This document shows, piece by piece, positions 34,433-46,234 of a stretch of DNA of 64,000 bases. Source of the DNA: an uncultured Gemmatimonadaceae bacterium (lineage in GTDB: Bacteria > Gemmatimonadota > Gemmatimonadetes > Gemmatimonadales > Gemmatimonadaceae); the NCBI GenBank assembly GCA_963790305.1, contig CAWBOC010000010.1, forward strand, positions 96,001-160,000. Direction: 5' to 3'. The translations under genes were made by a program, and so were the position numbers. How positions within the stretch are numbered: the first letter of the stretch is position 1; each line of letters starts with the position of its first letter. Under the pieces are notes generated by a model. It had not been told where the DNA came from. It did not search any database and saw only the letters and a list, made by a program, of their open reading frames with translations.

Positions 34433-36689
34433 TCAGAACGCCTGCCCAATCGAGAGGTGGAGCGTCAACCGGTCGGCCACCTGCCGCCATCCTTTTTTCT
34501 TGGCATCCTCGAGCGGATCGTAGGCCTTCGTCTGCTGGAGAGGGACGATGCGACGCACGCCATTGTCATCGATCACCTCGGTGACGATCGGAAGATTCTC
34601 GGCCAGTCGAGGCTTTACGCCGAGGTCTACACGAATGGGTCCGACCGGCGTCGTGTACCGAAACCCGAAACCGGGTGTGACCGCGCTCGTGCCGCGCGTG
34701 AGCGTTGAGACATCGCCCTCGCCGACGACGGCGGCGTCGACGAAGACCGCCATGTCGAGGGAGCGCCAGATCCCGAAGCGATACTCGACGCTGCCCTCGA
34801 GCAGGGTGCTGCCACCGACGGGGCGAGGCTCGAAGTCGCTCGAATGGGAGGGCAGTAGCTTCCTCGCAGCTGCCGCTCATCAGCTCCTCGCGCGTGCACA
34901 GCGGAGGAAGCGTGGTGGTGTCGTTGACGACCCGGGGGTTCAGCACCTTGCCCGGATCGAAGGTAAGCACGCGAGGTCCGAGCTGATTCTCGCCGTATCC
35001 CCGAACCGACTGTGATCCCCCCGCGTAGAAGCGCTTTCGGGGGTGCAGGATCAAGTTCGTGGTCGACGCCTCTCCGGTGAGCGCTTCCGACGCACTCCCG
35101 AGCGCTTTGACCCAGCCACCACGCACGCGCCAGGAGAGCACGGCGTGGCGGCCGAATGGATGGTACCGGCGATACTCCCCCGACACGCGATTGTAGCGAT
35201 AGTCGGACATGGTGAACGCCGACGCGTGCTCGACGTCGGCGCGCGCGAAATACCCGCGGCTCGGGTCGAGCGGGTCGTCGCCGCGATCCGTCAAAAGCGA
35301 CAGCGCAAGCGGCGACATCCGTTGACGCGCACGCAGCGCCACGATATCGCTCGGATCGCAAATTCCGAAGTTCTCGCAGAAATACACGTCGCTGGCTTCG
35401 ACCCGCGTCAGCTCGAACCGATACGTCAGGCTGATCGGTGCCCGCGTAGCGAGCATGCGCGTGAACGTCGCGCTCGTGCCGAATCCCTTCTCGACGAAAA
35501 TCCCCGGAGCGCTGCGGCAATGCGTAAACGCACTCAGGCCCAGTGTATTCCGGGGAGACTGGAACCACGGCTGTGTAAAGTCGGCGCTCGCCTGCCAGGT
35601 GGGCGAGAAGTACTGGTCGGCCTCCCGGTCCGCGACCGGCCGGCGCAGGACTTCCTGAAATGGGAAGCGCGCGTTCAGCGAATTGGCCAGGAGGTTCCCG
35701 ACCGCCGCGCGGAAATCGAGCCGCCTCCCACCGCCGAACCAGTTGTATCTCGTGAGGCGGCCTTCGACCTGGCCGAATTCCAGTGTACTGAATCCCGCGC
35801 TCGCGCGAATCTCGCGCAGCGGGGCCTCTTGTACCGTGATCTCGATGTGCTTCACGCTGTCGCCCTGTGGCGGGACGATGATCACCGCGCGCCGGAACAG
35901 GTTCGACTCGTACAGATTGCGCTGGCTGGTGGTGATCTCGTTCCGCTTGTAGAGACGGCCTTCCCGCAGGGTAAGCGAGTTGCGAATGGTCCGTTCGGAC
36001 ACGCGCTCATTGCCGCTGATGGAGATTTGTCCGATGGTGGTGGCCCATTTCGGCTCGACGGTCGCGCGAATGCTGGCAGACTTCGCGGCCGTATCGACCA
36101 CGATCGTGTCGACGCGCGCGTCGGCGTCTCCGTATCCCTTGTCCCAAAGAGCCGACTCGAGAAAGAAGACGCTCGAGTCGAGCGCGATGAGGTTGAGCGG
36201 ATCGCCGGCGCGCACCTTCATCGCGCTCCGCACTTCGTTGTCGTTGAGCACTTCGCCGGGACGCTCGACGCGGATCGAGCTCACGCGAGTCGGCGGCCCT
36301 TCAGTAACTCTGAACTCGACGCGTACCCCCCCTTTTTTCGGGGTAACTACGGTATCGACCTGGGCATCGCGCCATCCGCGCTTCCAGTAGAACACGCGGA
36401 TGCGAAGCATGTCGCGCCGCAGCTCGGTGCGATCGAGGTAATGCCTGTCCTTGAACAGACTCCAGTTGCTCACCCAGCAGAAGGGCGTGAGCAGCAGACT
36501 GCGGCAGCGCGTCTTTTCAGTCTCGATGCTCTCTTCGAGGTCGTCCTTGCTCACCGACTCCACGCCCGCCCACTTCAAATCCTTGACCTCGGGCGCTTCG
36601 CGCTCGTCTCGCGCCTGCGCACCCATCGGTGTTCCGCCGGTGAGGCAGACAAGCAATGCGATGAGGCTTGCCAGGGCGAGGCGAGTCAT
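34433..36689 (-). CDS. Omp85 (TamA/BamA-like) protein with POTRA domains, interrupted by a +1 frameshift near 34843
   Basis: POTRA motifs (ISGNERVSERTIR) and FYAGGSQSVRGY; the C-terminal barrel GFGFRYTTPVGPIRVD...HLSIGQAF lies in the shifted frame. Removing one base restores LPSSDFEPRPVGGSTLLEGSVEYRF. Confidence 0.85.
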
Positions 36690-36725
36690 GGGGTCCGGAA
36701 ATGCAAGCCCTGCGCCCAAGAAAAT

Positions 36726-36810
36726 GAGGCGCTAGAGGCGCTAGAAGCGCTAAAGGCGCTGGAGGATAACCCCCAGCGCCTCTAGCGCCTCTAGCGCCTC
36801 TAGCGCCTCA
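36726..36810. repeat. Family A palindromic 9-mer element downstream of rho
   Basis: About four GAGGCGCTA-type units, a short loop, then about four TAGCGCCTC units. Confidence 0.85.
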
Positions 36811-36814
36811 GCCG

Positions 36815-38302
36815 TTACAGCCCCGCGAGCAGCGCGTCGTTCCCCGCCGTGCCGGCGATGCGCTTGATCAACCACTCCATCGCCGACTGCGGCGGCATCT
36901 GTTGGAGACCGCGGCGCAGCGTGTAGACGTTGTCCAGCTGATCCGGACGGAAGAGCTTCTCCTCGCGCCGCGTTCCACTCGTCGCGATGTCGATCGACGG
37001 GAAGATACGCTTCTCGGACAGTGACCGATCGAGCTTGATCTCGGAGTTGCCAGTCCCCTTGAACTCCTCGAAGATCACGTCATCCATGCGCGAGCCCGTC
37101 TCGACGAGCGCGGTGGCGATGATCGTCAGCGAACCGCCGCCGTGCTGCGGTGCCACCGAGCGCGCCGATCCGAAGAAGGCCTTCGGGCGCGCCATGGCCG
37201 TCGCGTCGAGACCCCCTGAGAGGGTGCGACCGGTGCCACGCTCCACCGTATTGTGTGCCCGCGCGAGCCGCGTCAACGAGTCGAGCACGATCACGACGTC
37301 CTTGCCATTCTCCACCAGCCGGCGCGCGTGCTCCAGTGTCATCTCCGCGACATCGACGTGTCGCTCGGCGGGCTGATCGAAGCTCGACGCGATCACCTCA
37401 CCGCGCCCCCACTCGATCATCTCGCTGACTTCCTCGGGGCGCTCATCGACCAGCAACACCAGCAGCGTCGCCGTCGGATGATTGATGGCCACACCCTCCG
37501 TGATCGCCTGCAGCAGCATCGTCTTTCCGGCACGCGCAGGCGCAACGATCAGCGCGCGTTGGCCGAACCCGATCGGCGCGATGAGGTCGATGGCGCGCCG
37601 CGTGAGCTCTGGGCCCCCCTTCGCGGGCTTGCCCGTCTCGAGGACGAGTTTGCGCTCCGGATAGGACGCGACGAGCGACGAGAATTCCGGCCGGCGCAGT
37701 GCCAACGTGGGATCGTCACCATTGATCGTCCGCACCTCGGCCACCGCCATACGTCCGCGATGGTCGCGACCGACCGTCGCGTTCACCATGTCGCCGCGGC
37801 GAAGGCCGAGCTGCCTGACGAGGTGCGGCGGCACGAAGGCATCGGCGGGGGTGGGGAGATAACTCTCCGCCGCCCGGCGAATGAAGCCGCCGTCGCGTGA
37901 CGGGTCGAACCATCCTTCCGCATCGCCCTCGGCGACAATGACCGCTGGCACCGGAGCGCCGCCGCCATGCTCGGGGCGAGGACCGCCGCGTCCGCGACCG
38001 CGTCGTCCACGCCGTCCATTCTGACCAAATCGATCACGCCCACCCTGGTGCTGCGGTTGCTGACCGGGATGTCGCGTCGGAGGGGGACCGCCCGGCGTGG
38101 GGACGTTCTCACTCGACGGAATGCTAGGCGGCGCGGTCGGAGCGGGCGTGCCATTGTCGCGCTCCGGCGTATCGCCGTCCGGTAGCGCTGACGCGTCGTC
38201 ACGGTAGGGATTCACTTCCATGTCATTGGCCTCGAAGGTGGGACGAGGCTGCGCTGGGCGCGGGCCGCGCCCACGACGGGGCGGGCGTCTGCGTTCGTTC
38301 AT
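36815..38302 (-). CDS. rho: Transcription termination factor Rho with a low-complexity N-terminal extension
   Basis: APIGFGQRALIVAPARAGKT, LVDERPEEV, LDSLTRLARA, TLSGG, ETGSRMDDVIFEEFKGTGN. Confidence 0.95.
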   Translation of the reverse strand: MNERRRPPRRGRGPRPAQPRPTFEANDMEVNPYRDDASALPDGDTPERDNGTPAPTAPPSIPSSENVPTPGGPPPTRHPGQQPQHQGGRDRFGQNGRRGRRGRGRGGPRPEHGGGAPVPAVIVAEGDAEGWFDPSRDGGFIRRAAESYLPTPADAFVPPHLVRQLGLRRGDMVNATVGRDHRGRMAVAEVRTINGDDPTLALRRPEFSSLVASYPERKLVLETGKPAKGGPELTRRAIDLIAPIGFGQRALIVAPARAGKTMLLQAITEGVAINHPTATLLVLLVDERPEEVSEMIEWGRGEVIASSFDQPAERHVDVAEMTLEHARRLVENGKDVVIVLDSLTRLARAHNTVERGTGRTLSGGLDATAMARPKAFFGSARSVAPQHGGGSLTIIATALVETGSRMDDVIFEEFKGTGNSEIKLDRSLSEKRIFPSIDIATSGTRREEKLFRPDQLDNVYTLRRGLQQMPPQSAMEWLIKRIAGTAGNDALLAGL

Positions 38303-38688
38303 GCAACCATGTGTGTCGTGGTGAATTCTCGGTGGACACGTCCATGCGGATCGTGTCCCGTACTTCCTATGGAGCTTGTCGTGAGCGCGCCGCTGCACGC
38401 GGCTGTTCCAGTCGCTCTGGTGCATGGCCGTCATGGCGACGCACCGGTCCTGCTTCCGTGCTGTTGTCGACGACGTCGCGGAACCACGGACAACTCACGC
38501 GCTTCCGGCGCTTGCTCAGCGCAACCCGAGCGGCTCCGCGCCTGCCGTGCGGCGCTGCTCGTCCACTTTGGGATGGCCGACGCGCACCGGCGGGTCAGCC
38601 ACCACCAACTTCACTTCCCAGGTCGATTTACGCAACTGCCAGCTTCCGGGCCCTCTCCAGGGGCGAGAAGTGTGCCCAAGGCACCCCC

Positions 38689-38928
38689 TCATTCCTCCTT
38701 CTCCCTCAACGCGTCGAGCTTTCGGGAAGACGCAATCACGCGCCTGGCGAGATCGACGATACGTCTCACCGAGTCTCGCTGCTCCTCGTTGAGAGTGGCG
38801 TCGAGCTCCAGGAGCTGCGATTCCGCCAGCAGCGCGGCGAGTGGGTTGTTCATCTCGTGCTGCACTCGGCCTACCGCGTTCGATAGCTCCATCACCCGGC
38901 TGGTCTCGCTCAGCTTGTGCTCGCTCAC
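38689..38928 (-). CDS. Stand-alone HisKA (DHp) domain protein, 79 aa
   Basis: H-box VQHEMNNPLAALL followed by a second helix; no HATPase domain. Confidence 0.75.
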   Translation of the reverse strand: MSEHKLSETSRVMELSNAVGRVQHEMNNPLAALLAESQLLELDATLNEEQRDSVRRIVDLARRVIASSRKLDALREKEE

Positions 38929-39040
38929 GCGTCAGGCTCCGGCCGCTTTCGGTCAAGGTCCCCGCACAATGACGACGCATCGTCGCATTCGTCAGTCGAG
39001 GGTGACCTCGGCTGGTGCTTCTGCATAACTTACGCCTTCC

Positions 39041-39628
39041 ATGACACGCGCCGACGTTCACACCGAGATCACCGCCGCCGTCGATGCCTATCGGGAGGAC
39101 GCGAACATCGCCCACCTCCTCGAGCGCATCGAGGACGTCGCGCGTACGGCCGATCCCGACACGCTCGCGTCAGCGGTCGAGCCGTTCCGGGCAATGCCCG
39201 AGGTCGCGGGCCCGGCATATGAGCACATCGTCGCCGCCAAGCCTGACGACGCGCATGCACTGGTGATTCTCGCCAACGCCTACTGGCTCGCGGGCCGCGG
39301 GCCGGAGCACGTCGCGGAGCTCGCCTCCCGCGCCATCGCGGCCGATCCGACGCATCGCGGTGCCTGGCACCTCTGGGCACTGACCGAGAGCGATCTTCGC
39401 TCTCGTGTGAGCCGCTGGCACCAGGTCGCCGAGCGCTTTCCGGGTGACCAGCTCGCTCGCGCGAACCTGGCCGACAACGCGGCCGCACTTGCCTCGACCG
39501 CTCACGATCGTGAGGCACTCGACCTGGCGATTGAGACCTATGGTGGACTGCTGGCCCTGGCCGAGCGGGAGGAGGAGCGTCAGGCGTTGGGGCGCGCGAT
39601 CGAGACTCTGCGAGGATGGCGGTTGTGA
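39041..39628 (+). CDS. All-helical TPR-like hypothetical protein
   Basis: PDDAHALVILANAYW...AIAADPTHRGAW resembles a TPR; coding-like codon usage. Confidence 0.65.
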   Translation: MTRADVHTEITAAVDAYREDANIAHLLERIEDVARTADPDTLASAVEPFRAMPEVAGPAYEHIVAAKPDDAHALVILANAYWLAGRGPEHVAELASRAIAADPTHRGAWHLWALTESDLRSRVSRWHQVAERFPGDQLARANLADNAAALASTAHDREALDLAIETYGGLLALAEREEERQALGRAIETLRGWRL

Positions 39629-39688
39629 ATGCGGAAGGCGGAATATCGTTGACGGTCAAGAACCTTCCGCATTCCGTATTCCGCTTTC
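39627..39688. repeat. Family B palindromic heptamer element between convergent genes
   Basis: GAATGCGGAAGGCGGAAT ... CCTTCCGCATTCCGTATTCCGC. Confidence 0.75.
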
Positions 39689-39695
39689 TACTTAG

Positions 39696-40091
39696 CTACG
39701 CGCTCGCGTCTCTCACTCGCGGCGCCATTTTCGCCAGCTCACCGGTGAGCTCCTGCAGCTCGAACGGTTTGTGAAGCGCCTTGCAGCCGCACGCCTCGAT
39801 GAGCTCGAGCGCGCGCTCACTGGTGTCACCAGTGGTGAAGAGCGTGCGATAGCGCAGGTGCGGCTGGATCGATGCGGCGAGCTCGAACAGCACGTCCCCA
39901 CGCAGGTCGGGGATGCGGAGATCGAGCACGAGGAAGTCGAAGTGTTCAGCGCGGAGGAGCGTGTGGGCCTGCTCGCCAGCCTCGACGGCAATGACGTCAT
40001 AGCCGGCGCGCCCGAGGGCGATCGTCAGCGCACGACAGATCGTCGGTTCATCATCGACCACGAGTACACGCAACCGTTCATTGAACCGCAT
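39696..40091 (-). CDS. Single-domain response regulator (receiver only)
   Basis: VLVVDDEP, LVLDLRIP, TTG, HKPF; start overlaps the AraC gene end. Confidence 0.88.
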   Translation of the reverse strand: MRFNERLRVLVVDDEPTICRALTIALGRAGYDVIAVEAGEQAHTLLRAEHFDFLVLDLRIPDLRGDVLFELAASIQPHLRYRTLFTTGDTSERALELIEACGCKALHKPFELQELTGELAKMAPRVRDASA

Positions 40092-40875
40092 TCGTTCGCT
40101 CTCCTCGCCGTGCCAGCCGCGCCGTGAGCAGCGCGACGAACTCGTCTGGTGGTACACTTTGCCGCAACGTGGTCGGCGTGAGCCCCGTGGCTGCTCGAAC
40201 CTGCCGTGCGAACAGCCGAGCCGATCCGTAGCCGAGCCGCTCGACCACCTCGTCCAGCGAGCGTCCCGGGTCCTGCATGTAGAAGTACGCGCGCAACAGT
40301 CGCGCGCCCAGCACCAGCATCCTTGCCGAAGCCACTCCGGCGCGTTCGAGCCACCGGTCCAGCGCCCTGCGGTTCATCGCCGCGGCCTTGGCGAGATCGT
40401 TCACATCCCTGAACTGCTGCGGTACCCGAAAGAGCCGCTCGACGGCTCGCGCAAGCTCGGCGGGGACAGTCGCGAGCGGTCGCGCGAGCAATGCGAGCAC
40501 CGCATCACTCATCGCGTACGCCGGCTGCCGCTCCAGGAGATCGCGGAAGCGGCGCGGCTCGTCGTCGAAGTTCCGGAGGACGACGTGCCGCACGCCCAGC
40601 TTTGCCAGCTCGACCGTCGCCCCGAGCGTTTCCGGAGCGAGGATCGTGTAGATCACTACTGGGAGCGAAGGGAAGTCCCGGATCAGACTCCGGAGCTCGT
40701 CCAGTCGCACCGTTCCCTCGGCCCGTGGATCGGCAACGAGCAGATCCACCGGCTTGCGTCGCACTTCGTCCTCGAGCTCATCCCACCGATCGACGGTGAT
40801 GACGTGGTGCTCGCGGCCGAGGACGATTCGCAGGTGGGACAGCAGAAGGGGAGGGAGACGGACGACGACGTTCAC
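40078..40875 (-). CDS. AraC-family regulator with a degenerate receiver-like N-terminal domain
   Basis: C-terminal double HTH (VNDLAKAAAMNRRALDRWL ... SLDEVVERLGYGSARLFARQVRAATGLTP); N-terminal DLLVADP...PVVIYT. Confidence 0.85.
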   Translation of the reverse strand: MNVVVRLPPLLLSHLRIVLGREHHVITVDRWDELEDEVRRKPVDLLVADPRAEGTVRLDELRSLIRDFPSLPVVIYTILAPETLGATVELAKLGVRHVVLRNFDDEPRRFRDLLERQPAYAMSDAVLALLARPLATVPAELARAVERLFRVPQQFRDVNDLAKAAAMNRRALDRWLERAGVASARMLVLGARLLRAYFYMQDPGRSLDEVVERLGYGSARLFARQVRAATGLTPTTLRQSVPPDEFVALLTARLARRGERTNAVQ

Positions 40876-40889
40876 GCCATCGGATTACG

Positions 40890-40954
40890 TGTCCTAAAAG
40901 TGCACATCGATGTCTCAAGATGTGCGTTTACCGATGGACGCGTAACCGTACCTT
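40890..40954 (+). promoter_or_regulatory. Tandem operator (21-bp period) plus candidate promoter of the 44-aa peptide gene
   Basis: TGTCCTAAAAGTG (40890) and TGTCTCAAGATGTG (40911), then TTTACC-16-TACCTT. Confidence 0.55.
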
Positions 40955-41004
40955 GCGTGACAGTTGCAACCCCCCAGTTACAACTCTTCCCGCGAGGTCA
41001 GATC

Positions 41005-41139
41005 ATGTCCCGCCGCCGCCTCTCTCTCCTGGTGCTCTCCCTCCTGACGTTCGCTGTCGCTGCCTGCGCTGACGTGACTGCGCCGGAACCGAGCAGTGAT
41101 TGCGCGATCACCTCAGGCTCCGCCGGCAAAACCTGCTGA
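41005..41139 (+). CDS. 44-aa micro-lipoprotein / secreted peptide precursor with a C-terminal Cys loop
   Basis: GAGGT RBS; MSRRRLSLLVLSLLTFAVAA-CADVTAPEPSSDCAITSGSAGKTC; lipobox VAAC; own intrinsic terminator. Confidence 0.8.
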   Translation: MSRRRLSLLVLSLLTFAVAACADVTAPEPSSDCAITSGSAGKTC

Positions 41140-41160
41140 CATTAGTTCGTTCCAATCTTC

Positions 41161-41193
41161 AGGCCGCGGACTGCCATCCGCGGCCTTTTTTTT
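41161..41193 (+). terminator. Intrinsic terminator after the peptide gene
   Basis: AGGCCGCGGA-ctgcca-TCCGCGGCCT 10-bp stem followed by a T7 run. Confidence 0.9.
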
Positions 41194-41198
41194 CAGGG

Positions 41199-42440
41199 CT
41201 ATCCAGCGACTCCGGCCAGCTCGCGCATGCTACGAACCGCGGTTGCCACGCGTTCCACTTCGGGCGTGGGCTCGGGAGCATTCGCGATGATAACCACTCC
41301 CGCCTGGTCGAGCGACTGAAGACTTTGCTCGGCGCGGAAGAGTGCCTGGTTCATCCCGTGGCGCTCCGCCAATTCAACGGCGCGCAGTAACGCAGCTCGC
41401 GCGGCCGAGACGTTGCCGAACATTCGGTAACCCTCGCCAACATAACAGTAGTAGTGACACGCCAGCGTCGCCGGTAACGTCGCGTCCGCAAGCTCACGGC
41501 GATACTGCTCGAATACCGGCTCCCGCCCGTCGACGGCAGCGCATTCCAAGAGGTTGATCGTCGCCACCCAGCGCGTATGCTGCTCCTGAGCAGTGGCAGC
41601 GAGGATCAGATAGGCATCACGCGCGGCGTCGCGCAGTCCCAGCTCGAAGAACGCGGCGGCAATGTCACCCAGCACGCGGTCGCGCGAGGCGGCGTCCGTG
41701 TATCCTTCGAGAGCCTGGTATCCCAGCGTGACAGCGAGGTCGTATTGTCCACGCCGGAACGCGATGTCTGCACGGTCGTGCAGGGCGATCGAGCGGATCT
41801 CGCCACACCGGTTGGCATCTGCCTCGCGGATCGTATCATCGAGAAGCGTTTGCGCGTACGGCAGATTGCCACGCTCGATCGCAATCTTCGCCTCGTTGAC
41901 TCGCGCTCGCAGCACGTTCACGATGTCGCTCGCCATCGCGGCCGCGCACCCCGCACGCGCATACGCCGCCGTCGCTTCATCCCATTCAGCGAGGGTACGG
42001 AGACACGCACCGAGCTGCATGTTCGCGGCGATCACGATGTCGGCTTCCTCGACCGGATGCGCGTGCGCGATCACCGTTTCATGGACGTCGGCCGCCAGCT
42101 CCCAGCGTCCCTCGAACTGGAGCGCCCGACCATAGGCGAGGAGCCGCGGTGCAATCAATGGCACGCGGACCGTTCGTGAGGTTTCCATCGCGTCCACGAT
42201 GCTGGCGAGGATAGACCGTGTCGCCGAACCAAGATCAATGGCTTCGATGGCCTCGCGCACCGCCCGCAGGCCCCACGCGTCGGCCGCGACCACGCTCGGC
42301 CCTTCGACGAGCCATGCATCGAAGAGACGCAACGTGACCAAACCGGCGCTCGTCAGGCGCCAGTCCGCGCTGCCTTCCTCGGCGCGCGCAAGCGCTTCGA
42401 AGAACGGCAGGTGCTGGAGATTGGGCTCGCTCATGGTCAT
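41199..42440 (-). CDS. Cytoplasmic tetratricopeptide-repeat protein (about 410 aa) with an uncharacterised helical N-terminus
   Basis: Repeated TPR-like helices (LGACLRTLAEWDEATAAY, RADIAFRRGQYDLAVTLG, IAAAFFELGLRDAARDAY, VGEGYRMFGNVSAARAAL); no signal peptide or evident HTH. Confidence 0.8.
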   Translation of the reverse strand: MTMSEPNLQHLPFFEALARAEEGSADWRLTSAGLVTLRLFDAWLVEGPSVVAADAWGLRAVREAIEAIDLGSATRSILASIVDAMETSRTVRVPLIAPRLLAYGRALQFEGRWELAADVHETVIAHAHPVEEADIVIAANMQLGACLRTLAEWDEATAAYARAGCAAAMASDIVNVLRARVNEAKIAIERGNLPYAQTLLDDTIREADANRCGEIRSIALHDRADIAFRRGQYDLAVTLGYQALEGYTDAASRDRVLGDIAAAFFELGLRDAARDAYLILAATAQEQHTRWVATINLLECAAVDGREPVFEQYRRELADATLPATLACHYYCYVGEGYRMFGNVSAARAALLRAVELAERHGMNQALFRAEQSLQSLDQAGVVIIANAPEPTPEVERVATAVRSMRELAGVAG

Positions 42441-42494
42441 TCCGAATCCTTATCGACGTGATCGGACTTTCTGCCATTATGCGCTATGAAATTG

Positions 42495-42554
42495 ACGAGG
42501 GTCATAGGGCGCCGCAACGACACTTTTGAGACACGGAGCGCATGAATCCAGACA
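42495..42554 (-). promoter_or_regulatory. Tandem operator (21-bp period) upstream of the TPR gene, same motif as at 40890
   Basis: Minus strand: TGTCTGGATTCATG (from 42554), then TGTCTCAAAAGTG (42533-42521), followed by TTGCGG. Confidence 0.55.
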
Positions 42555-42734
42555 CTTGTACCGCCAACACCACTGATTCAGAGGCGCGATCTACGCAGAA
42601 TATCGACGGTGACCAGAAAGACGACGCATCCAACTCCCTCCTGTACGGGTTATCTTTCGTTCGCCACCCCGCACACGCATCGCCGGCTCGATCGTCCTTA
42701 GGACAGCGCGACCTACCACCCCTCAAGGCGCACC

Positions 42735-43778
42735 ATGTCCACTTCCGCAGCTTTCGGCGTCCCCGCCGCTCAGACCGCGTCGCCCCTGCGCGGCTGGCAG
42801 ACCACCACCGCACCCTATCGAGCGAGCAGCACCGCTCGGGCCGCGGTTCAGCTCTGCACCACGATCCTGCCACTCGGCGCGCTGGTCGCGCTCATGTACG
42901 CGATGCTCAATGTCTCGTACTGGATAACGCTCGCGCTGGCCGTTCCGGCCGCCGGCTTTCTGGTACGCACGTTCATCATCATGCACGACTGCGGGCACGG
43001 GTCGTTCGTGCCCTCGCGACGCGCCAACGAAGTCATCGGGTTCATCACCGGCGCGATCACGCTCACGCCGTTCGCACAGTGGCGGCGCGACCACGCGCTG
43101 CACCACGCCTCGTCGGGGGACCTTGACCGACGGGGGCATGGCAATGTGCTGACGCTGACCGTCGAGGAGTACCTGGCAAGATCACGGTGGGGACGCCTGA
43201 AGTACCGCCTGTATCGCAACCCGATCACGCTGTTCATCCTCGGGCCGATTTTCCTCCTCTTCGTCCGGCACCTGCCCGCGGCGGGGATCGCGCTGACGAC
43301 GAAAACGAAGATCGAATCCCGCGCCACTACCGCGGCCATCGTGACGATGGTCGTCGGATTCGCACTCGCGATTGGATGGAAGGCCGTGCTCCTCGTCTAC
43401 GGACCGATCATCCTCATCGCCGGCGCGACCGGGAACTGGCTCTTCTACGTACAGCACCAGTTCGAAGATGCGTATTGGGAGGCGCACGAGGGATGGGATT
43501 ACGCCGAGGCCGCGATCAAGGGCGCGTCCTATTACCGGCTGCCGCGCGTCCTCGAGTGGATGACCGGGCGCATCGGGCTGCACCACGTCCATCACCTCGA
43601 CCCGAAGATCCCCAACTATCATCTGCGGCGTTGCCATGATGAGAACGGGGTGCTTCAGGCGGTGACCGTGCTCACGATTCGCGAAAGCATCCGGACGGCG
43701 TCGTTGAAGCTGTGGGACCCCGAGCATCGCCGCATGGTCGGTTTCCGCGCGCTGCGATCGCGCCGCGCGGCCGCGTAG
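42735..43778 (+). CDS. Membrane fatty acid desaturase (Des-like)
   Basis: Three His boxes: HDCGH, HALHH, HHVHH. Confidence 0.92.
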   Translation: MSTSAAFGVPAAQTASPLRGWQTTTAPYRASSTARAAVQLCTTILPLGALVALMYAMLNVSYWITLALAVPAAGFLVRTFIIMHDCGHGSFVPSRRANEVIGFITGAITLTPFAQWRRDHALHHASSGDLDRRGHGNVLTLTVEEYLARSRWGRLKYRLYRNPITLFILGPIFLLFVRHLPAAGIALTTKTKIESRATTAAIVTMVVGFALAIGWKAVLLVYGPIILIAGATGNWLFYVQHQFEDAYWEAHEGWDYAEAAIKGASYYRLPRVLEWMTGRIGLHHVHHLDPKIPNYHLRRCHDENGVLQAVTVLTIRESIRTASLKLWDPEHRRMVGFRALRSRRAAA

Positions 43779-46197: not shown

Positions 46198-46234
46198 GAG
46201 GCGCTGAAGGCGCTAGAGGCGCTGAAGGCGCTGG
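46198..46234. repeat. Tandem 9-mer (family A)
   Basis: GAGGCGCTG/AAGGCGCTA-type units, four copies. Confidence 0.75.

Follow-up and report, generated by a model that had tools for sequence, protein, structure and literature searches.

A conserved micro-lipoprotein, TPR and AraC cassette in Gemmatimonadota as a candidate peptide-signalling circuit

Enterococcal sex pheromones are cut from the signal peptides of lipoproteins and are sensed by cytoplasmic PrgX. Very small lipoproteins with functions of their own also exist, for example the entericidins; micro-lipoproteins of this type have precursors of 40-50 residues, a lipobox, and a Gly-containing mature peptide that forms an amphipathic helix. 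Among transcription factors, MxiE is an AraC/XylS activator that needs a tetratricopeptide repeat (TPR) chaperone, IpgC. InvF and SicA form another such pair of AraC-type activator and TPR chaperone, the availability of which is set by secretion of the chaperone's substrates (PMC10761746). A further close comparison is offered by the RRNPP systems, which the available portions of two further accounts describe in Firmicutes and their mobile elements (PMC10075063; PMC9765709); the string "Gemmatimonad" is absent from these portions. Here, we analyze a three-gene cassette in a 64,000-nucleotide stretch of DNA (hereafter the window; G+C ~66%) from an uncultured Gemmatimonadaceae bacterium (contig CAWBOC010000010.1 of GCA_963790305.1, positions 96,001 to 160,000). 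The cassette encodes a lipobox-bearing peptide of 44 amino acids (aa), a TPR protein of 413 aa and an AraC/XylS-type regulator, and we tentatively read it as a self-contained, autoregulated peptide-TPR-AraC feedback circuit.

The window was compared with two sets of loci. The first consisted of 13-kb regions around 20 TPR homologues from relatives, including the unpublished genome G015; the second, independent set comprised 80 public loci found with a narrower TPR alignment, all from Gemmatimonadota metagenome-assembled genomes (MAGs) except for one labelled Actinomycetota and one labelled "bacterium". In all 20 loci of the first set the TPR gene adjoins the AraC gene, with a lipobox open reading frame (ORF) lying between the two and convergent with the TPR gene. 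Among the public loci, AraC is adjacent to TPR in 67 of the 68 with at least 1300 nt, and a lipobox micro-ORF is present in 72 of the 73 whose sequence extends 230 nt or more downstream of TPR; L109 is the one without it. An initial annotation of the window had named the loss of this synteny in relatives as grounds for abandoning its proposal, and had asked whether small lipopeptide ORFs recur beside homologues of the two proteins; the synteny is kept, and the ORFs do recur.

Copy number and phylogeny point in the same direction. In the multi-copy genomes G311, G128 and G085, all eight TPR+AraC pairs carry their own, different lipobox micro-ORF, while the remaining TPR matches in these genomes include one that stands alone, one pseudogene and two partial sequences; some genomes hold up to five TPR-family matches. 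The trees of TPR and AraC recover the same paralogue lineages (L129 with L133 and L102, L130 with L134, and L131 with L136), and the patristic distances of the two proteins are correlated (r 0.85). TPR, peptide and AraC are thus, as far as synteny and trees can tell, inherited and duplicated as one unit. The initial annotation had grouped further parts into a module, adding a single-domain receiver (REC), a second small TPR-like protein and a stand-alone dimerization and histidine phosphotransfer (DHp) protein, and all parts that it named are indeed found where it placed them. Where at least 3 kb of downstream DNA is available, these three are frequent neighbours (REC in 58/61 loci, small TPR in 52/61, DHp in 45/61), and in many relatives the block DHp - small TPR - REC - AraC - TPR has rho and a bamA-like gene next to it. 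Secondary cassettes lack all three, however; the core unit is therefore the conserved and co-regulated trio, and the wider module does not hold as such.

The TPR homologues number 732, and every named one comes from Gemmatimonadota (Gemmatimonadaceae or Gemmatimonadota MAGs); in a protein atlas, only unnamed Gemmatimonadota clusters match the TPR protein. With a TPR-family profile and a threshold of E 1e-20, members were detected in 114 of the 301 genomes sampled from the phylum, the sample including the unpublished genomes G015, G102 and G217. By family, matches were found in 39/69 and 70/125 genomes of two families of the window's order, in 2/6 and 2/47 of two others, and in none of eight further families. 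The locus labelled "uncultured Actinomycetota" (L056, CAVXJL010000012.1) carries a full cassette together with rho; its TPR protein is 66% identical to that of the window, and its peptide has a signal sequence almost matching those of the window's genus. Mislabelling or misbinning of a Gemmatimonadaceae contig is the probable explanation.

The micro-ORF (41005-41139, plus strand) encodes a signal peptide, a lipobox, a tether and a Cys loop, its product reading MSRRRLSLLVLSLLTFAVAA/C-ADVTAPEPSSD-C-AITSGSAGKT-C. With Arg/Lys in the n-region, a hydrophobic core and the lipobox ..FAVAA/C, the precursor is a predicted substrate of signal peptidase II, and the host genome encodes Lgt and two copies of LspA. 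Outside the window, on G000 contig C9 (60874-61826, minus strand), the two LspA genes form a tandem pair. The mature product is predicted to be lipid-anchored and about 23 residues long, with a Pro/Ala/Thr tether followed by a variable 10-residue loop between two Cys. A C-x-x-P-T-A-P motif follows the lipobox Cys in 7 of 268 larger lipobox ORFs of the same genome as well, so the tether is generic and only the C-terminal loop is special; indeed, Pro, Ala and Thr prevail at positions +5 to +9 in the lipobox ORFs of this genome. The exported-peptide gene had been annotated with a terminator of its own, and both were found: an intrinsic terminator at 41161-41194 (plus strand), with a 10-bp GC-rich stem (41161-41186) followed by T8, reads in one direction only. 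Its stem pairing is kept by compensatory changes within the window's genus, and a strict hairpin with a T-rich tail lies downstream of the micro-ORF in 35 of 72 loci. A scan of 38400-42900 against Rfam returned a suhB/mmgR match over the hairpin, which was taken as chance (22.3 bits against a cut-off of 41, E 0.23).

By its conservation, the micro-ORF is a real gene. A motif resembling a Shine-Dalgarno sequence lies 4-18 nt upstream of all 72 micro-ORFs, and 71 of them start with ATG. All 72 encode a signal peptide and a lipobox Cys, the ORFs having been selected by a regular expression; their precursors span 39-64 aa and the mature peptides 19-44 aa (median 25), with two further Cys around 7-11 residues in 63 of the 72. 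The family comprises 68 distinct mature peptides. No Pfam family (E up to 0.1) and no NCBIfam family matched the window's peptide, and a collection of 5.8 billion proteins held only six matches, unnamed or "hypothetical". Because these matches are few and unnamed and the window's own copy is absent from the collection, the micro-ORF is essentially unannotated so far. In three soil metatranscriptome runs, contigs 90-95% alike cover 39777-41152, a stretch with REC and AraC, then the intergenic region and the complete micro-ORF; some run from the AraC 5' end across the spacer into the micro-ORF (40746-41152), and one ends at 41152, just before the terminator hairpin. These contigs are unstranded, come from relatives and may reflect DNA carry-over, and their lack of cover over TPR carries no weight, TPR being too divergent to pass the likeness filter; they are consistent with transcription of the region from AraC to the micro-ORF.

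The peptide and TPR promoters have a tandem operator in common, consisting of TGTCCTAAAA-type repeats 21 bp apart at about 112 nt upstream of each start codon. Operator 1 (40889-40932, plus strand; direct repeats GTGTCCTAAAAGTGCAC and ATGTCTCAAGATGTGCG) is oriented toward the peptide gene, runs straight into a -35-like TTTACC and starts 14 nt from the AraC start codon, whereas operator 2 (42512-42555, minus strand; GTGTCTGGATTCATGCG and GTGTCTCAAAAGTGTCG, then TTGCGG) is oriented toward the TPR gene. The pattern RTGTCY-N15-RTGTCY occurs in the window only at 40889-40915 (plus) and 42529-42555 (minus), against 0.05 expected, a post hoc count since the pattern was derived from these same two sites. 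An independent control is provided by the comparison of gaps across loci, in which TGTC-N17-TGTC was found upstream of TPR in 34/64 loci, upstream of the peptide gene in 40/70 and upstream of both in 25/54, whereas control gaps of 12-16 and 18-23 nt reached at most 7/64 (TPR) and 1/70 (peptide). The position is likewise constrained. Relative to the peptide ATG, the first repeat is placed 108-118 nt upstream in 39 of 40 occurrences (152 nt in the remaining one), and relative to the TPR ATG 98-131 nt upstream in 31 of 40, the other TPR-side occurrences lying at 69-72 nt or belonging to a run of 7-nt-spaced matches at 209-244 nt. The operator is kept across genera, with the consensus TGTCCTAAAAnTGCACAT-nnn-TGTCCnAAAATGTGC passing directly into TTTACC (peptide) or TTG (TPR), which we read as a putative -35 element. 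In genus alignments, the 129-bp spacer between AraC and the peptide gene is more conserved than the mature part of the peptide, and a conserved block is present upstream of TPR as well. That one motif serves both promoters had already been suggested for the window; the specificity of the 17-nt gap across loci makes the case stronger than it was put.

Direct repeats about two helical turns apart and next to a -35 element represent the classical geometry of AraC/XylS activators. By adjacency, the neighbouring AraC-type regulator is the presumptive ligand of the repeats, and since operator 1 starts 14 nt from the AraC start codon, autoregulation is likely. When the whole genome (8.6 million positions) was scanned with a position weight matrix, the top score, 60.7, fell to operator 1; operator 2 scored 31.1, a third strong site on another contig scored 31.4, and the next best site scored 13.5. 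The third site (G000 contig C5, 344620-344663, minus strand; locus L121) lies ~134 nt upstream of a gene for a 575-aa lipoprotein without a Pfam family. This protein was not found in eight same-genus genomes and was dropped as a regulon-defining target. The genes beside it encode an S41/PDZ peptidase and a TonB-dependent-like outer-membrane protein.

The TPR protein (41199-42440, minus strand; convergent with the micro-ORF) had been described as a cytoplasmic protein of ~410 aa without a helix-turn-helix (HTH) domain. This description fits: the 413-aa product matches TPR_12, has no HTH match and shows no signal peptide by eye. Its AlphaFold2 model is all-helical, with a predicted local distance difference test (pLDDT) score of 91.7, and starts with helices at the N-terminus (11-87), followed by about seven TPR pairs over 93-378 and, at the C-terminus, a last helix. 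A Rap- or RRNPP-type receptor had also been proposed, and this part of the proposal survives only partially. Sequence profiles returned generic TPR matches only, with no membership of the RRNPP family at the level of sequence. In a Foldseek search with the model, LGN/Pins came first by E-value, and Rap of pLS20 gave the best template modelling (TM) score, 0.52-0.58. In a further structural comparison, Rap of pLS20 with Phr* scored 24.4 (321 residues, model 24-362), the Rap of phage phi3T 23.9, RapF 22.5, NprR 22.4, AimR 20.5 and RapH-Spo0F 19.5, compared with 25.7 for APPBP2, about 25 for subunits of the APC and 24.3 for MalT domain III. Thus, the modelled protein appears Rap-like in size and architecture, yet its likeness to Rap is no greater than that to unrelated TPR proteins.

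The regulator (40078-40875, minus strand) combines an HTH_18 domain (E 2.9e-12, 47.1 bits against a cut-off of 33.6) with an N-terminal domain of the receiver fold. In Pfam, the latter yields only a weak Response_reg match (E 0.013, 16.1 bits against 30.2); the AlphaFold2 model (pLDDT 87.5) displays a clean (beta-alpha)5 receiver fold over residues 2-115, and the best Foldseek matches of the domain are FixJ, PorX, RcsB and the FleR receiver (TM 0.76 on target). Across 51 AraC sequences, D49, Y76 and D105 are invariant, Asp49 following beta3, and the acidic pair after beta1 is replaced by L-P/S-P; the residue after beta5 is mostly Arg rather than Lys. A complete phospho-acceptor pocket was not found in this domain. 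Because Asp49 is invariant but the beta1 acidic pair is replaced, the name "pseudo-receiver" given in the initial annotation is, for the modelled and aligned domain, a fair one.

In the circuit that we favour, the AraC-type regulator would bind the tandem repeats, activate the peptide and TPR genes and, given the position of operator 1, repress its own gene. The loop of the exported lipopeptide would be released from its anchor, re-imported and then sensed by the cytoplasmic, Rap-sized TPR protein, which would pass its occupancy to the regulator through the non-phosphorylatable receiver-like domain. The outcome would be a positive-feedback, strain-specific (pherotype-like) signalling loop, to which, at the primary chromosomal copy, a co-transcribed REC and the DHp-only protein may supply phosphorylation input. 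Three Opp-type binding proteins (SBP_bac_5 genes) are encoded in the genome, which is permissive only with regard to re-import.

Within the genus, divergence is concentrated in an island made up of the peptide loop and the TPR body. Identity to the window is 88-96% for AraC and 88-98% for REC, but 71-85% for TPR. Compared with L023, its closest relative as judged from flanking genes, the window has 88-95% DNA identity in the flanks and 72% in TPR; the loss of identity sets in within the peptide gene's 3' half (bin 41100: 0.58) and stops near TPR codon 47 (bin 42300: 0.91). Synonymous divergence (pS) is raised too, so relaxed constraint alone does not account for the island: pS of TPR is the highest of seven genes in 22 of 28 genus pairs, and in the two closest genome pairs it amounts to 0.50 and 0.49 versus 0.10-0.29 for the flanks. 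Along the peptide gene, pS rises from 0.21 in the signal peptide to 0.56 in the tether and 0.65 in the loop; in TPR, the positions variable at genus level are residues 61-100, 181-260 and 341-380. Flanking genes group the window with L021 and L023, and L024 with L025, whereas the TPR tree groups the window with L021, and L023 with L024. On TPR data, approximately unbiased (AU) tests rejected the clades given by the flanks (p 0.003 and 0.005), and on flank data they rejected the TPR clade (p 1e-137), for groups chosen after the trees had been seen. The types of peptide loop agree with the TPR tree (the window with L021, and L023 with L024). Pherotype loci display islands of old alleles that have been exchanged, and by analogy the peptide loop and TPR body resemble such loci as an island of allelic divergence.

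Besides the post hoc choice of the AU groups, several observations weigh against the circuit. The initial annotation had asked whether the peptides co-vary with the TPR and AraC proteins, and covariation specific to peptide and TPR was not found: in partial Mantel tests on 52 cassettes (51 loci and the window), the peptide-TPR correlation given AraC was r 0.14 (p about 0.03), and the peptide-AraC correlation given TPR was r 0.27 (p about 0.0005), the peptide thus tracking AraC distance at least as well. In some pairs the peptides are nearly identical while the TPR proteins are only 67-74% identical, as in L061 and L077 (TPR 67%, peptides 91%). There is no sign of positive selection, dN/dS (the ratio of nonsynonymous to synonymous rates) being 0.07-0.16 for TPR and 0.27 for the loop. 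The recurring lipopeptide, moreover, is not always a looped one, as the Cys loop is missing in 9 of the 72 peptides. Given the lipid anchor, the disulfide loop and the outer membrane, the return route to a cytoplasmic receptor is non-trivial, and no protease or importer is linked to the cassette. Finally, no fused forms of TPR were found among longer proteins at E 1e-10, although this absence is weak evidence. The proposal of a quorum or contact circuit in a diderm thus retains a conserved, co-regulated trio, paralogous cassettes and an allelic island, but lacks specific covariation between peptide and receptor; judged from sequence, the cassette is a good candidate for peptide signalling, possibly of the quorum or contact kind.

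A possible, if somewhat doubtful, alternative is that the peptide never meets the TPR protein. Here, AraC with TPR as a co-regulator would sense some other cue and switch on the lipopeptide as an envelope product, namely a membrane-tethered loop with a protective, adhesive or antagonistic role, and the variability described above would reflect diversification of a surface-exposed loop next to a generally fast-evolving TPR protein. Such an arrangement would agree with the rapid divergence of TPR even where the peptide is constant, with the weak covariation, with dN/dS below 1 and with a generic tether on which the loop alone is special. Furthermore, the third strong operator precedes another lipoprotein gene, making all non-regulatory targets lipoproteins; this target is strain-specific, however, given its absence from the eight same-genus genomes. 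The shape of the island is also difficult to reconcile with hitch-hiking of the loop alone, as it is asymmetric, starting sharply inside the peptide gene and extending for 1.2 kb through the TPR body. In addition, every duplicated TPR+AraC pair retains its own peptide gene, and the peptide showed no similarity to the entericidin family in Pfam at E up to 0.1.

An export-coupled partner switch is improbable, but would dispense with the return route across two membranes that the signalling circuit needs. In this scheme, which follows the logic of InvF and SicA, TPR would bind the 44-aa precursor in the cytoplasm ahead of its export, a step that is necessarily post-translational; export would drain the precursor, and the freed TPR would act on AraC as a co-activator or anti-activator. 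AraC, TPR and a small exported product are indeed encoded together and co-regulated, and the TPR protein shows a faint match to the SycD/LcrH chaperone model (TIGR02552; E 0.01). This match, at 15.6 bits, falls far under the cut-off of 104.8 bits, however, and the protein is 413 aa in length compared with ~160 aa for class II chaperones. No type III secretion context was found among the neighbouring genes, and the AraC protein here carries a receiver-like domain of its own. A purely intracellular circuit would, moreover, leave deep allelic lineages and the recombination between strains unexplained; because allelic exchange at strain level argues for interaction between cells, this scheme is ranked lower.

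A loose neighbourhood near rho and bamA, with no common function and with the small ORF as a by-product of conserved regulatory DNA, has almost nothing left to recommend it beyond the possibility that synteny beside rho and the bamA-like gene is partly inherited gene order in many relatives, and it is already contradicted by the counts, since additional copies of the trio lie apart from rho and all include a peptide ORF, the signal peptide, lipobox, Shine-Dalgarno-like motif and stop codon are kept in 72 of 73 loci despite DNA divergence, and the operator lies at equal distance from both start codons.

The remaining genes of the block lie between rho (36815-38434, minus strand) on the left and a fatty-acid desaturase gene (42735-43778, plus strand) on the right. 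REC (39696-40091, minus strand; Response_reg E 1e-15) overlaps the AraC stop codon with its ATG by 14 nt, bearing out the coupling of a receiver-only protein to the regulator that was first noted in the window. It has the canonical DD, D, T and K phosphorylation residues, read by eye in the window sequence only, and its best NCBIfam match, CpdR, falls far under the cut-off. The stand-alone DHp protein (79 aa; 38689-38928, minus strand) was likewise recognized correctly: HisKA is matched above the cut-off (E 2.3e-8, 34.4 bits versus 26.9), the H-box reads HEMNNPL in the window sequence, the protein stops after the second helix, and the Pfam scan revealed no catalytic HATPase (CA) domain. On these grounds it is a DHp-only protein and not a histidine kinase. 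As for the second small TPR-like protein, a gene for a cytoplasmic product of 195 aa is present at 39041-39628 (plus strand), but its TPR_16 match (E 7e-4, 20.4 bits) remains under the cut-off of 32.7, and its assignment to a TPR family is weak.

Several features further to the left were noted in passing. The rho ORF encodes 539 aa, with the RNA-binding domain starting at residue 173 after an N-terminal extension rich in Arg, Gly and Pro. In the bamA-like ORF (34566-36719, minus strand), the last ~90 residues are Arg-rich and unlike the end of a beta-barrel, possibly owing to a frameshift or to read-on past the true stop. Between these two genes, short arrays of a 9-nt unit and of its reverse complement face each other at 36726-36765 and 36775-36809 (4.4 copies of GAGGCGCTA and 3.9 of AGCGCCTCT) and could form a long hairpin; a similar array is found at 46198-46233.

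If the signalling circuit is real, a convergent or related system in Gemmatimonadota would change the Firmicutes-only picture of cytoplasmic TPR-receptor signalling, and it would open a first way into the cell-cell or envelope signalling of a soil phylum that is abundant and poorly studied. Searches of the literature on Gemmatimonadetes peptide quorum sensing and on Gemmatimonas AraC or tetratricopeptide proteins returned nothing on the cassette. It is conceivable, although we hold this with reservation, that the cassette represents the first Rap/Phr-like pheromone system with a cytoplasmic receptor outside Firmicutes, at work in a double-membraned soil phylum, with a lipoprotein-anchored, disulfide-looped pheromone, exchangeable loop/TPR pherotypes and several private channels per genome; its signal could be released and then re-imported, or the lipopeptide could pass between kin through contact or in vesicles. 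Regardless of mechanism, an unannotated family of micro-lipoproteins, a family-specific operator and a three-gene cassette are defined, and the cassette is small enough for direct testing.

Comparison with the systems introduced above shows both shared and differing features. Similar to entericidins, the peptide has a lipobox precursor of 40-50 residues and Gly in its mature part; unlike them, it has no family match, carries a Cys loop instead of an amphipathic helix and is tied to a TPR and AraC pair. With InvF-SicA the cassette shares the combination of an AraC-family regulator, a TPR protein and an exported protein, as well as putative activator sites next to a -35-like element. Unlike that pair, it has no type III secretion system in its neighbourhood, its TPR protein is 2.5 times the size of the chaperone, a 44-aa Sec/signal peptidase II lipoprotein precursor takes the place of the exported partner, and the regulator has an N-terminal domain of the receiver fold. 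The enterococcal pheromones set a precedent for what is proposed here, namely a peptide signal that originates in a lipoprotein precursor and is sensed by a receptor in the cytoplasm. Their signal, however, is a fragment of the signal peptide of a large lipoprotein, whereas in the cassette the short mature part of 19-44 residues is variable and the signal peptide is the most conserved part, even synonymously (pS 0.21 versus 0.65 in the loop).

The RRNPP(A) systems, Rap-Phr in particular, offer several parallels. The cassette likewise encodes a cytoplasmic, all-helical TPR protein of ~400 aa that, as in Rap, lacks an HTH, beside a ~40-codon gene whose product is an exported precursor with the candidate signal in its variable C-terminal part. 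Some genomes hold several paralogous cassettes with different peptides, and only the peptide gene's 3' half and the receptor body show allelic, pherotype-like divergence. Unlike these systems, the cassette resides in double-membraned Gemmatimonadota, its peptide gene is convergent with the receptor gene, and the TPR protein has neither sequence-level membership of the family nor a structural likeness above that of unrelated TPR proteins. Whereas the RRNPP(A) signal is short, linear, unmodified and released, the lipobox precursor here is predicted to yield a lipid-anchored and usually disulfide-looped product. Output, in turn, is proposed to run not through a receptor HTH, Spo0F or ComA but through a separate AraC protein with a receiver-like domain.

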